From assembly GCF_004010195.1 (NCBI RefSeq), contig NC_057718.1:69960730-70024729 (forward strand): 64,000 bases of DNA, read 5' to 3'. How positions within the stretch are numbered: the stretch's first letter is position 1; each line of letters begins with the position of its first letter. Position numbers and translations under genes: made by a program. Of the stretch, positions 361-39,939 are shown in pieces. This DNA comes from Chiloscyllium plagiosum. Taxonomy: Eukaryota. The notes beneath the pieces were generated by a model. The model saw only the letters and a list, made by a program, of their open reading frames with translations, was not told the origin of the DNA and made no database searches.

Positions 361-1020
361 AATGGTGGTCACCTATAGTATGAAATAAAACCAAGGTCCC
401 GGTTGAGGCCCTCCCTATGGGTACCAAACTTAGCTGTCAGCCTCTGCTCGGCCACTTTTCGCTGCTGCCTGTCTCGAAGTCCGCCTGGGAGGATGGTCAC
501 CTGAAGGTCCGAGGTCGAATGTCCTGGACCGCTGAAGTGTTCCCCAACACTCCTGTCTGTTGATTGTTGTGTGGTGCCCGTTCATCCGTTGCCGTAGCCT
601 TTGCTCAGTTTCCCCAATGTATCATGCCTCAGGGCATCCTTGCCTGCAACGAACAAGATAAATAACGTTAGCTGGGTCACATGAGTACCTGCCATATAGG
701 TGGTGGGAGGTGTCCCCAAGAGTAATAGTGGTATCCATGTTCACACTCTGACACATCTTGCAGTGCCTAGGGTTGTATGGAGTTGTCCTGAAAACTGGGC
801 AGCTTGCTGCGAACAATGATCTGTTTGAAGTTTGGCAGTTGTTTAAAGGTGAGCAGTGGAGGTGTGGGGAAGGTCTTGGCGATGTGCTTATCCTCATTGA
901 TAATGTGTTGCAAGTCACAAAGAACATGGCATAGTTTTTCAGCTCCTGGGAAGTACTGAACAATGAAGGGTACCCTATCGGTTGCAGCACGTGTCTGTCT
1001 CCTGTGGAAGTCATTGTGGT
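361..1020 (-). mobile_element. Penelope-like retroelement 3' portion (Cys-rich linker + GIY-YIG endonuclease, Neptune-like), decayed
   Basis: Minus strand reads ...RHCKMC...YSCDPANVIYLVRCRQGCPEA*YIGETEQRLRQRMNGH, a GIY-YIG motif with an in-frame TGA. Confidence 0.85.
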
Positions 1021-1139
1021 TCTTCTCTTAAAGTAGACGTGGCAGGGTTTTGTGGTCTGTTATAATTACAAATGCACATCCATGAAGATATTGGTGGAAC
1101 TTCTTGACTCCAAATATGACTGCCAAATCTTCCTTCTCT

Positions 1140-12920: not shown

Positions 12921-13487
12921 GATGAATTATCTTGGTATGGGATGGGGACCAGTTTATTCTCACCTATGGTACCCATGGGGATGGCCTCAACCAGGACCTT
13001 GGGTTCATGTCACACTACAGGTGACCCCACTGCACTACACACGCACACGCTCCTACAGACTCATACATTCATGCAGACCCTCTCTCATACACAAGATCTC
13101 TCTTATATGCTCACACATAACCTCTCGCACACTTATACTCCTTTACCCTCACACTTACACAGCTATACATGCATACACACTCTCACAGACACTCATATAC
13201 ACCCCGCGCACACATATAAGTTTGTGGGGTGAATTTGTACTTGCAGAATTACATTCTATTTTGTCCAACAACTGCTTAAATCCATGCAAAATTCTGTAAA
13301 TCCCTTTTTTTAGATTAGAATCAGTCTGAACATTGAGGCACAGACAGCCTCACATAGGGCACCTCATACTTTCAATGTATTATCTGGGCCAACATGGCAC
13401 CTATTGTTAAAGTTCACTTGAGATTGTAACTTGAAGAAATTCTGGGATTTACGTATGAAATAAATGAAACCAACGTGGTCATTCTAA

Positions 13488-13776
13488 AAGACCTGGGTTC
13501 AATTCCCGCCTCAGGCGACTGACTGTGTGGAGTTTGCACGTTCTCCCTGTGTCTGCGTGGGTTTCCTCCGGGTGCTCCGGTTTCCTCCCACAGTCCAAAG
13601 ATGTGCAGGTCAGGTGAATTGGCCATGCTAAATTGCTCGTAGTGTTAGGTAAGGGGTAAATGTAGGGATATGAGTGGGTTGCGCTTCGGCGGGGCAATGT
13701 GGACTTGTTGGGTCGAAGGGCCTGTTTCCACACTGTAAGTAATATAATCTATGTAATCTAATCTAATCTAATCTAA
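13488..13776 (+). mobile_element. HE1-type V-SINE, 5'-truncated
   Basis: Starts at the B-box region (GACCTGGGTTCAATTCCC) and has a long TCTAA tail. Confidence 0.9.
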
Positions 13777-13884
13777 TGACAGACTCAACAAACAATCCAG
13801 GTCTTTTTCAATATATAGTTTCAGTTACATCACATTGTAAACTTTTGCTGTAACTTCTACATCTACGATCTTATACTCCACAAC

Positions 13885-13919
13885 CATCTGATGAAGGAGG
13901 AGTGTTCTGAAAGCTAGTG
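13885..13919 (+). ncRNA. Minimal hammerhead ribozyme motif (family B), stem II weakened
   Basis: CAT-CTGATGA-A-GGAG-GAGTG-TTCT-GAA-AGCT-A-GTG. Confidence 0.6.
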
Positions 13920-15684
13920 CTTCCAAATAAACCTGTTGGACTATAACCTGGTGTTGTGTGATTTTTAACTTTGTATATCCAAATCCAACACTGGCAACTC
14001 CAAATCATTATTTTTATATGTTTATTTGAGGAGATATAATGACAGAAAGTCAAATTCTTATTGAAAAAGTAAGTTTTAAGGACAATCTTTAAAGAGTACA
14101 GACAAGTGGAGTATTGGAAAGGATTAGGGGTGGCATTCCAATGCTTCACACCTCAGGCAAATGACAACCCTAATGATGGAACAAGCAATGAGCATGAGGC
14201 AGTTGAATGACATGAATATACAAGTTGTTTCTGTTAACTGACAATATAACTATACATTCCATGTCTTCCATTCAAAAAGAAAACTGTGTAAGTACAGACA
14301 GAAGTGACAAAAGCTCAAAAGTATGACACCAATCTTTTAAAGCACTGTTGGTGGGCAAGTTTCAACAACCACAAGTATGGGTTCATTATTTCTTGTTTGT
14401 GGGAACCAGAGAATGTAAGCGTAGAGCCAATCACACAACATAATAAAGGTTCCAGACTTAACTTTTCAAAACTATTTATCACACTTTCTTTAAAAGAAAC
14501 AGGGGGCAGAATCTTATAGAAGTCTGAGTGAGATTTGTGACAGAGTCAGATAAGAAGTCTAGCAAGGCCCAATTCGATGTCGGAAGCAACTCATATCATC
14601 CTTTATGCTTTTGACAAGTGTCATGTAAGTTTCTCACCAGTTAACACTAAGTTGCCAATTAAGGGGGATTATTGCTTGTTAAATAGCCCAATCTACCTCA
14701 ATATTCAGCTTTCTATCTTATTAAACTCGGCAAACAAACGATGTTGAGGAAACCCGATATAGAAACCTGTTATGGCAAATTCAATACACCAATTGCTTTT
14801 GAGGACTTCCATGTCGTATATGACTAAACTGCAGTCTTGCCTCATCTTGTTATGCTATACCTGTTAGTGCAATGGTGCTTCTGTCAGAGCCAAAGGCTCT
14901 CAATACTGACTTATTGACATGCTGTTTCAACCAGACACATAAACATATAGCTTGTCATGCTGGTCAAATGATCTGTCTGGGGAGGGCACGTTTTGCTGTA
15001 TGGCACATCAAAACATCAATTTAATAGCTATTGTATGTGTCAACTCCCTGTACAGCAAACACACTAAACCTTTGTTCAATCAAATGTCAATTTTGGGAAC
15101 TGGGTGGGGGCTGGTCCTCAGTCTGTCAGTCAGGGGTCCTTGGTACCACCAGTCAGGGGCACAGTATATACAAAATCCAAGGGCTCATCCACAAGTCGTC
15201 AGGGAATACATTTTGACAACAGTCTGACAAGTAGCAAAAGGTAGTCCTGTAGGGTCACACACCGCAGTCAGAGAAATCATGTATCACGCTTTAGGGAGCT
15301 CCTAATACAGTGAACAGATCTACTTGTTGAACTCAGTCTGAGGTACAGTGCAAAAACAGTTCTAGGAGTCCATGCACTGATCATTGAGAGATGCCTCTGG
15401 GTGCAGCGGAGGAATCACCATCAAAAGAGGTGTGCATGCTTGGGGAGGGGGAGAGAAGGATGTGTGGGATTGGAGACAAGGAAGGTTTAGGTGGAAGCTC
15501 AATGTGTATGGCAATAGACAAAACAGCCCCAGAGGCTACGCTAGGCTGCGAGAAGGAAGGTATTGACAGTGACTACCACTGCAGCCTTACAGGAGTTACG
15601 TAGAGGAGCAAGATGGGTATGATAATGTTACATTCAAGGGTCAGGGAGGACAGTTTGAGATAAAGTTTAATGTGGTAATGTCAG

Positions 15685-16345
15685 AATTTACATAACACCT
15701 GGTTATAGTCCAACAGATTTATTTGAAATTACAAGCTTTCAGAGCACTCTGAAAACTTATAATTTCAAATAAACTTTAGATTAGATTACATTCCCTACAG
15801 TGTGGAAACAGGCCATTCAGCCCAACAGGTCCACACCAACCCTCCAAAAAGTAACCCACCCAGACCCATTCCCCACATTTACCCCTGACTAATAATACTA
15901 ATACTATGGGCAATTTAGTATGGCCAATTCACCTGACCTACACATCTTTGAATTGTGGGAGGAAACTGGAGCACCTGGAGGAAACTCATGCAGACACAGG
16001 GAGAACGTGTAAACTCCATACACACAGTCACCCGAGGTTGGAATCGAACCCGGGCTCCTGGCGCTGTGAGGCAATAGTACTAACCACTGAGATTCACCTG
16101 ACCTACACATCTTTGAATTGTGGGAGGAAACTGGAGCACCTGGAGGAAACTCATGCAGACACAGGGAGAACGTGCAAACTCCATACACACAGTCACCCGA
16201 GGTTGGAATCGAACCCGGACTCCTGGCGCTGTGAGGCAATAGTACTAACCACTGAGCCACCCCCTTATTTGATAATAACCTGGTGTTGTGTGACTTCTGA
16301 CCTTGTCCACCCCAATCCAACACTGGCACCTCCACATCATGTGAT
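15685..16345. mobile_element. Fold-back PLE family-B end fragment split by an HE1 SINE
   Basis: Palindrome at 15718-15773. The PLE terminus ATAACCTGGTGTTGTGTGAC...CCAACACTGGCACCTCCACATC resumes at ~16275. Confidence 0.7.
15777..16262 (-). mobile_element. HE1-type V-SINE with internal 165-bp tandem duplication
   Basis: 15927-16091 is repeated at 16092-16256 with about 2 mismatches. Confidence 0.92.
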
Positions 16346-24325: not shown

Positions 24326-24625
24326 TATACAAATATACCAGCAGAGGGAGATTGCTACTAAAAGAGAAAGTTAAAAATCACACAATGCCAGGTTATAGTC
24401 CAACAGGGTTTATTTGGAAGCACTAGATTTCGAAACACTGATCCTTCATCAGGTGGTTGTCAGGAGCAGCGCTCTGAAAGCTAGTGCTTCCAAATAAACA
24501 TGTTGGACAAAAACCTGGTGTTGTGTGATTTTTAACTTTCTCTTTTAGTAGCAATCTCCCTCTGCTGGTATATTTGTATACTTTGCCCACCCCAGTCCAA
24601 CACTGGCACTTCCACATCATGACTA
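24326..24625. mobile_element. Fold-back PLE family-B end with inverted copy of host flank
   Basis: Inverted arms at 24326-24432 and ~24474-24580. Hammerhead remnants at 24421-24455 (minus) and 24462-24486 (plus). Confidence 0.8.
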
Positions 24626-36524: not shown

Positions 36525-36723
36525 CAGGTAAAAACAAGGACTGCAGATGCTGGAAAACAGATTGTAGATTAGAGTGGTGCTGGAAAAGCACAGCAGTTCA
36601 GGCAGCATCGGAGGAGCAGGAAAATCAATGTTTCGGGTAAAAGCCCTCCATCAGGAATAGAGCCTCTGCTCCTCCGATGCTGCCTGAACTGCTGTGCTTT
36701 TCTAGCACCACTCTAATTGAGAA
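36525..36723. mobile_element. Fold-back PLE-derived insert with 13-bp TSD
   Basis: TSD TGAAGAGCAAGGC at 36512-36524 and 36724-36736. 52-bp inverted arms at 36568-36619 and 36666-36717. Confidence 0.85.
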
Positions 36724-38005: not shown

Positions 38006-39036
38006 GTATGAGACAGGGTGGTGGTAGCAGGTTGCTTTTCAGACTAAAAGCATGTGATCAGTGGTGTGACAGAAGGATCTGTGCTGGGTCCAATGCATTT
38101 CATCATTTTTATAAATTATTTGGATGTGAATATGGGAAGGATTGTGAGCATGTTTTCAGATCACACCAAAATTGGAGGTATAGTGGATAGTGAAGCAAGT
38201 TATCTCAGAGTACAACAGGACCTTTTTCAGATGGGCCAATGGACCGAGGAGTGGCAGATGGAGTTTAATTTAGCTAAATATGAGGCGTTACAATTTGGTA
38301 AGCAAACTAGGGCAGAACTAATGATAGGGCCCTGGGGAGTGCTGCCAAACAGAGACCTGTGGGTGCAGATGCACAGTTTCTTGAAAGTGGAGTCACAGGT
38401 AGACAGGGTGGTGAACAGCCATTTGGTACGCTTGCCTTCATTGGCCAGTGCATTGAGTAAAGTAGTTGGGATGTCATGTTGTGGCTGTATAGAACATTAG
38501 TGAGGTCACCTTTAGAATACCATATTCAACTCTACTCTCCCTGCTTTCATAAAGATTTTGTTAAACTTTTATGGCATTCAGCAAAGATTTGCAACCGTCT
38601 TGCTGGGATTGTAGTAGTTGAGCCATAGGGAGAGGCTAAATAGGCCGGGGCCTTTTTTCTTGGAGGTTCAGAAGCTGAGTGGTGACCTTCTAAAATCATG
38701 ACGGGCATGGATGGGGTGAATAGCCAAGGTCTTTTTTCTGGGGTAGGGTTGTCCAAAACTAGAGGCCATAGGCTTAATGTGAGTGGGGAAGGATTTAAAA
38801 GGGACCGGAGAGGCACATTTTTCACACAGAGGATAATGTGTCAGTGGAATGAGCTGCCAAAGGAGCTGGTGGAGGCAGGTACAATTACAACATTTAAAAG
38901 ACAACTGGATGGATACATGAATAGGAAGGGTTTAGAGGGATATGGGCCAAATGCTGGCAAATATTACTGGATCAGTTTAGAATAGCTGGTCATCATGAAT
39001 GAGTTGGGCCAGAGTCTTTATAACTATGATTCTATG

Positions 39037-39810
39037 AAGTTAAAAATCACACAACACCAGGTTATAGTCCAAAAAGTTTAACTGGAAGCACACTAGCTTT
39101 CGGAGCAACGGTCCTTCATCAGGTAATAGTGGGACACAGGTACACACAGACGTGCACACAGACACCCACACACACCCTTATAGACACACACACTCCCNNN
39201 NNNNNNNNNNNNNNNNNNNNNNNNNACCCCTACCCCAGACAGACACACACACACAGACAGACAAAGACCCACATGCACACATATATTTTGTGTGGTGAAT
39301 TTGTACTTGCAGAGTTACATCACACTTTGCTCAAAAACTGCATATATTCATGTAGAACTCTGAGCTCAAAAACTGCATGAATTTATGTAAAACTCGGTTA
39401 TCTCACTTTTGGATTAGGATCAATCTAAACATCAGGTCATAGACAGAGAACACGGGGGCTAACACTTTCAACATATTGTCTAGCTATCACCATTGTTAAC
39501 AGCTAACCCGAGAATGCAACTTTAAAAAAAAAGGGTTTTGTGATTTACACATGAAAGAAATGAAACTATCACTGTATTCTAACAGATGAAAGGCTTAACA
39601 GACAATCAATTCTTCAATGTATAATTTCAGTTACATCACACTGCAAATTTTTGCTATAAATTCTGTGTTACGATCGAGCCCTCCTCAATCACCTGATGAA
39701 GGAGCGTCACTCCGAAAGCTAGTGTGCTTCCAATTAAACCTGTTGGACTATAACCTGGTGTTGTGTGATTTTTAACTTTGTACACCCCAGTCCAACACCG
39801 GCATCTTCGA
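39037..39810. mobile_element. PLE family-B 3' end with inverted partial terminal repeat (gap at 39198-39225)
   Basis: Minus-oriented copy at 39037-39125 and plus-oriented tail to 39810. Each carries a hammerhead motif. Confidence 0.85.
39690..39724 (+). ncRNA. Minimal type-I hammerhead ribozyme motif (family B), intact
   Basis: CAC-CTGATGA-A-GGAG-CGTCA-CTCC-GAA-AGCT-A-GTG: stem I CAC/GTG, stem II GGAG/CTCC, palindromic AGCU and a CUA cleavage triplet. Confidence 0.8.
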
Positions 39811-39939
39811 ATTATGATTCTATGACTATTGTGCTGAACTAGAGACATGTATATCATTGCTATCATATTAACAGTGTGATGAAAGATGTGATTTGTTTTA
39901 CAACTTTGGATCTTAAATATCATGATATTAACAGGTAAA

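Follow-up and report, generated by a model that had tools for sequence, protein, structure and literature searches.

A minimal hammerhead motif and a polyadenylation site in the terminal repeat of a shark Penelope-like element

The 35 nt at 39690-39724 of the window (the whole 64-kb stretch of DNA that was analysed) are very probably the minimal hammerhead ribozyme (min-HHR) of the pseudo-LTR (pLTR) of a Neptune-type shark Penelope-like element (PLE), carried as passive cargo by a dead insertion. At the level of the family, a poly(A) site in actual use separates the ribozyme from both 3' ends of the element in the same terminal repeat, and this is new: no poly(A) site in a PLE repeat was found in the literature searched, though supplements and Repbase or Dfam entries may note one. 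The motif itself adds a shark to a class known since 2014; the copy studied here is probably inert. Feature coordinates are collected in Table 1.

Table 1. Features of the 39-kb insertion and of related copies in the window
Feature	Position	Strand	Remarks
Minimal type I hammerhead motif	39690-39724	+	predicted cut between 39721 and 39722
Stem I, 5' strand CAC	39690-39692	+	
Core box CUGAUGA	39693-39699	+	
Extra A	39700	+	
Stem II	39701-39713	+	GGAG 39701-39704, CUCC 39710-39713
Core box GAA	39714-39716	+	
Palindrome AGCU	39717-39720	+	intermolecular helix III in the dimer model of PMC4209133
A17	39721	+	
Stem I, 3' strand GUG	39722-39724	+	
Poly(A) hexamer ATTAAA	39733-39738	+	AATAAA in the 13-kb and 24-kb sister subfamily
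Family poly(A) addition site	39750-39753	+	after the pyrimidine at 39751; RNA loose ends, depth drop
GU/U-rich tract	39756-39773	+	downstream of the poly(A) site
AC-rich PLE tail	39780-39815	+	between two genomic-copy 3' ends, about 39779 and about 39815
Direct arm	39133-39815	+	5'-truncated PLE end: CA-rich 3' UTR, pLTR, tail; no ORF
Assembly gap	39198-39225		in CA-rich 3' UTR of direct arm
Inverted arm, tail-less	39037-39132	-	equals 39683-39778 at 91% over 96 nt
Second, more damaged motif	39091-39125	-	in inverted arm
Direct repeat, left copy (16 nt)	39022-39037	+	15/16 alike with 39810-39825
Direct repeat, right copy	39810-39825	+	overlaps tail end by 6 nt
Long direct copy, sister subfamily	12968-14012	+	ORF C-terminal end, 3' UTR, SINE, pLTR, tail
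ORF C-terminal end in sister copy	12968-13024	+	
SINE in sister copy	about 13492-13775		
Motif in sister-copy pLTR	13885-13919	+	
Broken ORF end of related copy	390-1027	-	thumb region, Cys linker, GIY-YIG-type endonuclease, then same CA-rich 3' UTR
Second head-to-head insertion, sister subfamily	24367-24622	both	
Third head-to-head insertion	15677-16341	both	+ arm split by SINE (about 15775-16262)

The motif, its insertion and its family

The letters and layout of the motif are exactly as the original prediction gave them, with the cut after 39721. The core boxes CUGANGA and GAAA-U-H, the type I order and stems I and II are all present. As in the metazoan PLE min-HHRs of Cervera and de la Pena (2014; PMC4209133), and in agreement with the consensus published there, an extra base (A39700) lies between positions 9 and 10.1, G10.1-C11.1 is G39701-C39713, and positions 15.2-16.2 are palindromic (AGCU). 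A structural descriptor with both stems recovers two sites in 64 kb, at 39690 and, by way of G-U pairs, at 13885. The 200 dinucleotide shuffles averaged 0.03 sites, and two of them contained a palindromic site of any sort; the motif thus exceeds chance expectation. The original prediction had also proposed a search with hammerhead models, and no hammerhead covariance model in Rfam matched at E≤10, either across the whole window or in 39640-39790; the sole Rfam output consisted of sub-threshold miRNA-type hits on the palindromes. The loose core pattern is not enriched in the window (10 matches against a mean of 5.78, with 6 of 100 shuffles reaching 10), and folding of the 35-mer against its own shuffles is not significant (z = -0.58).

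Much of this is already known from PMC4209133, which describes the class, the extra base, the palindrome, solo motifs in truncated copies and pairs of motifs on opposite strands, there 100-700 bp apart. In its Fig. S3, AGCU palindromes occur in, for example, the Chrysemys, Adineta and Schistosoma rows, and the Marsupenaeus row combines a CAC/GUG stem I with A at position 17. Unlike the present case, none of its 56 rows is from a shark, and its text is silent on poly(A) signals.

The motif lies within one insertion, 39037-39815, in which a long direct arm and a 96-nt inverted arm stand head to head. Along the pLTR follow the hammerhead, ATTAAA, the poly(A) site, the GU-rich tract, a first 3' end at 39779, the AC-rich tail and a second 3' end at about 39815. 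The 16-nt direct repeat at its borders is ambiguous as a candidate target-site duplication, because it sits in a short-repeat tract, which we take to be the tail of a CR1 LINE. Both marks of an EN+ PLE insertion, an inverted truncated partner and a one-sided tail of 30-40 nt, are present. Inverted partners and one-sided or optional tails are typical of PLEs (Craig et al. 2021; PMC8557442), and the Neptune/Nematis EN+ elements in that paper share with this family 5' truncation, an adjacent inverted copy, a tail at one end and the CX2-5CxxC motif. The insertion is shortened and dead. The site at 39091-39125, predicted to be a related copy, does hold a motif, but not an independent one: it belongs to the inverted arm of the same insertion, the two arms being 91% alike over 96 nt.

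The 39-kb copy has no ORF, and its link to PLEs runs through sister copies that are 68-82% alike. These bear out the predicted location in a PLE terminal repeat, as the same repeat is joined to a PLE ORF end at 12968-14012. The 13-kb copy continues from the ORF end into UTR and repeat, 68-79% alike with the 39-kb copy (79% over 239 nt), and a minus-strand copy at 1-1060 has an ORF end and UTR as in the 13-kb copy, with a broken thumb, linker and endonuclease region upstream. An 86-aa piece of this ORF (770-1027) matches 26 of 34 candidate proteins. Its best matches are from the sharks Chiloscyllium and Hemiscyllium, at 75-85% identity, which supports the attribution of the element to sharks. 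Protein P0010 has RVT_1 (E = 7e-9); next come a CxxxxCxxC linker and then the beginning of a motif of GIY-YIG type, both recognized by eye. The window remnant at 390-1027 aligns at 61-79%, so that the order of RT, CX2-5CxxC linker and C-terminal GIY-YIG is found. The CX2-5CxxC linker marks Neptune and Nematis (PMC8557442), and the element appears to be a Neptune/Nematis-type EN+ PLE, with the clade assigned from the linker motif alone and the two lineages not told apart. No Pfam family was found in the six window ORFs or in the 86-aa piece, and the ESM Atlas returned unnamed clusters at 0.93-0.95, with HTH_animal and GIY-YIG only as leads under 0.9. The 64-kb window contains neither a full-length family element nor paired pLTRs. 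In the whale shark, a protein annotated as 'G-protein coupled receptor 139' (P0027) includes a segment with 66% identity to the PLE ORF piece, probably through a gene-model error or exonisation of a PLE.

Four insertions in the window reach the repeat, and three of the four complete ones are head-to-head palindromes. Two further related copies had been predicted. That at 13885-13919 was found by the structural descriptor using G-U pairs; that at 24421-24486 resolves into two head-to-head arms, one with a damaged palindrome and stem II and the other without CUGAUGA. In 15677-16341, neither arm has CUGAUGA. Seven arms can be followed: two are long, two begin 10-12 nt upstream of the core, three begin inside the motif and none begins at the cut site. 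The copies form two subfamilies, that of the 39-kb copy with GUGUGC after the cut and ATTAAA, and that of the 13-kb and 24-kb copies, 2 nt shorter and with AATAAA. A SINE interrupts the copies at 13492-13775 and 15775-16262, so these PLE insertions are older than the SINE insertions. A piece at 16.3 kb, considered as a copy beginning at the poly(A) site, was rejected as the far half of the SINE-split arm. No further copies were found in the viral contigs scanned, nor any relative of protein P0009, and four metagenome loci were rejected as chance matches that extend over only 18-22 nt around the pattern match. Within 24326-24622, a 41-nt stretch (24540-24580) separates the first 3' end of the direct arm, at 24539, from the tail at 24581-24622 and is the reverse complement of the left host flank; this insert is the footprint of a template switch to target DNA between two RT start sites.

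A second PLE hammerhead family (A) is also present, as about 17 blast pieces with a 4-bp stem II and an ACGU palindrome, at sites that include 3122, 9671, 21550, 24830, 26915, 36658, 43241, 50453, 56015 and 59707. No poly(A) hexamer is visible within 75 nt after the motif in any of the five family A copies inspected. A family A insertion at 36589-36695 forms a hairpin and has a sub-threshold miRNA-type Rfam hit.

Decay, folding and transcription of the 39-kb copy

Public reads and contigs were mapped on 39400-39860 at 85% likeness, a threshold that pools many family copies. At 39709, where the window copy has A, G is found in 1161 of 1508 family RNA reads (77%) and in 83-84% of contig depth, so the family form has a 5-bp stem II closed by a triloop and the 39-kb copy is one pair short; the G-to-A change, at a CpG site, leaves it with 4 bp and a 5-nt loop. 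The motif had been called intact, and this stands for the core, the palindrome and the 3-bp stem I, but the 4-bp stem II is a decayed state. The T at 39685 is also private to this copy (A in 944 of 968 reads). At 39713, U replaces C11.1 in 19% of RNA reads (10-12% of contig depth), a change at a CpG that turns the pair into G-U.

The two arms of the insertion differ at 9 of 96 positions, four of them in the 35-nt motif. The original prediction had tied its case to a core and stems better conserved than the flank, which the window copies do not show: among the four that span the motif, the core has 0/48 differences and the downstream flank 4/156 (p = 0.57), while stems and palindrome, at 11/80, fare worse than the flank (p = 0.0015), in a rough comparison that mixes in subfamily differences and whose downstream block contains the very motif by which copies were located. 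The core is fully intact in all four, too few to separate this from selection. At the arms' divergence, the chance of keeping all 30 structural positions is 0.24; about one copy in four would be structurally whole by chance, and the intact look therefore needs no selection.

Under the dimer model, cleavage calls for another motif on the sense strand (PMC4209133). Here the other motif of the insertion faces the opposite way, and no same-strand partner lies within 39037-39815. Folding was done with ViennaRNA, whose energies do not cover tertiary contacts. When the whole locus is folded, the arms form a duplex of -141.6 kcal/mol and the probability of stems I and II is 0; when the inverted arm is left out, stem II reaches 0.001-0.34 and stem I stays at 0. 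The best dimer fold reaches -19.5 kcal/mol; a hand-drawn active dimer has -11.1 and two monomers have -11.0. At 39679-39704, an upstream CUCCU can capture the 5' half of stem II, and it does so in most folds. CUCC also lies upstream in the 13-kb copy, and such a segment may, as modelled, act as an off switch throughout the family.

RNA depth on the unique flank at 39832-39860 is nil, a weak point in that reads ended at the poly(A) site stop short of this flank, and only 73 of 3803 mapped RNA reads are 99% or more alike; there is therefore no sign of transcription of the 39-kb locus. Because the motif has no same-strand partner, the arms are paired with each other and no read shows transcription, cleavage at the locus is improbable, and for this copy itself we consider it very improbable.

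Two other readings of the locus were weighed. An RNA transcribed across 39690-39724 might form a dimer in trans with one of the many other family RNAs and so be cut after 39721. The core, the palindrome, the 3-bp stem I and four of five stem II pairs are intact, family RNAs are plentiful in one run, so that partners in trans exist, and the CUA/GUG context recurs in a published PLE motif from a shrimp (PMC4209133). We nevertheless regard this as very unlikely, given the lack of RNA depth on the unique flank, with the weakness just noted, the predicted sequestration of stem II by the inverted arm or the upstream CUCCU, the advantage of the best dimer fold over the active one, and the poor cleavage of published min-HHRs even as dimers (PMC4209133). 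The frequency of head-to-head palindromes might instead suggest a non-autonomous retrozyme or a palindromic mini-element with its own life cycle, the more so as non-LTR retrozymes have type I motifs and derive from pLTRs (bioRxiv 10.64898/2026.07.22.740005, a survey that covered one chondrichthyan genome). Retrozymes are, however, defined there by tandem same-strand motifs, whereas the 39-kb locus has no tandem units and its motifs are oppositely oriented; arm lengths and junctions also differ among the three head-to-head insertions, and this reading is extremely improbable.

A polyadenylation site used by family RNAs

The RNA evidence comes from run X20, a poly(A) single-cell library of which about 2 in 100 of the run were read; it represents one run and one sample, from which a further run, X21, contributed no mapped reads. 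The species label may differ from the species of the window, and the DNA run of that species contains 0.78 of the sampled words. Poly(A) loose ends were found in 431 reads behind 39750 and 526 behind 39753, at least 957 of the 3803. The two groups are read as one poly(A) site after the pyrimidine at 39751. It lies 13 nt behind the hexamer, ahead of the GU/U-rich tract and 30 nt after the cut site. Sense depth, taken as reads with the first mate on the minus strand, falls there from 1561 to 538 (-66%), with DNA depth changing by +15% and -25%; about a third of the sense depth continues beyond the site. None of three window copies has a genomic A-run at this position. Hexamer, spacing and GU/U-rich tract follow the standard layout of a Pol II poly(A) site, an analogy that suggests the role of the tract. 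A hairpin over the hexamer is not significant (z = -0.48 and +0.30), and we therefore claim none that occludes the signal.

Across the hammerhead, sense depth runs 1322, 1415, 1463 and 1561 without a step, and X20 shows no pile of read ends at 39721/39722 or anywhere else; the tailed family RNAs are therefore uncut. The missing pile is not counted against catalysis, because a poly(A)-primed library would lose both cut products, the tailless 5' product and, presumably, the 30-nt tailed 3' product. The tailed reads may be host transcripts that end at few copies. DNA loose ends, by comparison, form two clusters in both DNA runs, one at 39778-81 and one at 39803-06 with the final tail letters after it, in agreement with the two internal RT start sites of Poseidon_Ac from Anolis (Frangieh et al. 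2024; PMC11167929). In 195 RNA reads, an A-rich loose end follows the tail at 39806-39815 (agreement 0.6), which may be a second poly(A) site or priming on the A-rich flanks of insertions.

The site fixes the 3' end of family RNA upstream of both insertion ends, so tailed RNAs are no direct template for a long copy: they would need read-through, strand transfer or circularisation. The role of the PLE hammerhead thereby becomes a directly testable question. A very abundant shark repeat can, moreover, supply host transcripts with ready poly(A) sites. A parallel is the hammerhead in the 3' UTR of mammalian Clec2, whose cut site lies between stop codon and poly(A) signal, so that cleavage would likewise strip the signal; the Clec2 ribozyme is a discontinuous one in a host gene, whereas the shark motif is of the dimer type and belongs to a mobile element (PMC6765202).

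Could the poly(A) signal be an artefact, either because oligo-dT primed on A-runs in the genomic sequence of some copies or because single copies supply the ends of one or two host genes? Only one sample was available, and a C variant before the tail, present in 431 of 957 reads and absent among the DNA variants listed, could mean few loci. Against this, the three window copies have no A-run there, the DNA loose ends among those listed fall elsewhere, DNA depth does not follow the 66% drop of sense RNA, and hexamer, spacing and GU-rich tract suit a genuine site; an artefact is distinctly unlikely. The uncut state of the polyadenylated RNAs speaks for another reading, in which the motif is kept for a non-catalytic or rare role (as start-site element, protein-binding fold or passenger) and cleavage has no part in transposition. 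None of the seven window arms begins at the cut site and two begin 10-12 nt upstream of the core; ribozyme mutants of the anole element insert normally in vitro, and its RNA-seq has no ends at the cut site (PMC11167929); Naiad PLEs thrive ribozyme-less (PMC8557442). This reading is rather unlikely: a core common to families A and B and to 56 published motifs, with stems that appear to covary, is the pattern expected under catalytic selection, and the anole motif cuts with protein help, an activity lost on C3/G8 mutation (PMC11167929).

Possible roles of the ribozyme in transposition

We somewhat favour a catalytic family motif over a non-catalytic one. The preference is based on the core shared by families A and B, on apparent compensatory changes between them in stem II, palindrome and stem I (seen by eye, a 12-sequence MAFFT alignment being out of register after loop II), and on published dimer and protein-assisted assays. 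The parent element would have been pLTR-ORF-pLTR. Its protein may have nicked both strands of an AT-rich target, priming one cDNA from each start site, and the joining of two such target-primed cDNAs head to head would yield the 39037-39815 insertion, a scheme drawn from its anatomy and from Poseidon_Ac, in which both target strands are extended with uncut RNA as template (PMC11167929). Poseidon_Ac resembles the shark family in its pLTR hammerhead and in two RT start sites that bound an AC-rich tail, and in neither do reads end at the cut site. It differs in belonging to the Poseidon clade rather than having a Neptune-type Cys linker, and in an ORF that starts inside the ribozyme; polyadenylation is not reported in the text searched.

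In an active parent, the motif would cut after CUA only as an AGCU:AGCU dimer, probably with protein assistance. With its 3' repeat cut, the RNA would lose poly(A) signal and tail; with both repeats cut, an RNA of unit length would be released. Long copies could arise by read-through of tandem copies, the published scenario (PMC11167929), by a jump of the cDNA between terminal repeats, or from a cut-and-religated circle, a template proposed in PMC4209133.

A more LTR-like working of the pLTR can also be imagined, which we consider rather unlikely. RNA would start about 10 nt before the core and receive its tail 30 nt after the cut, so that the terminally redundant segment (39683-39751, about 70 nt) would be little beyond ribozyme and poly(A) signal. 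Both RT start sites, downstream of the poly(A) site, would be on the mRNA only near its 5' end, and cDNA running off that end would give stubs of 96-130 nt, equivalent to the inverted arms. Long copies would depend on strand transfer to the 3' repeat, comparable to retroviral strong-stop, or on a ligated circle, and the ribozyme would turn a capped, tailed mRNA into a template. If this were true, hammerhead plus AAUAAA might be a widespread PLE module. Among the 56 rows of Fig. S3 in PMC4209133, AAUAAA lies in the 3' flank of about 15 nt in nine, with AUUAAA in two more, and in none of the 5' flanks (by eye). Nine compares with 3-4 expected by hand guess (Poisson p = 0.004-0.02), and the excess is only a lead, given A-rich 3' flanks and U-rich 5' flanks.

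Position 39724 corresponds, in coordinates of the 39-kb copy, to the cut site of the shorter subfamily. Three of the 15 DNA joints listed (15 of 103) join opposite strands and end there, with 12 contigs; they may represent cDNA copied off cut RNA, or else artefacts caused by the 2-nt indel or by CAC-GTG complementarity.
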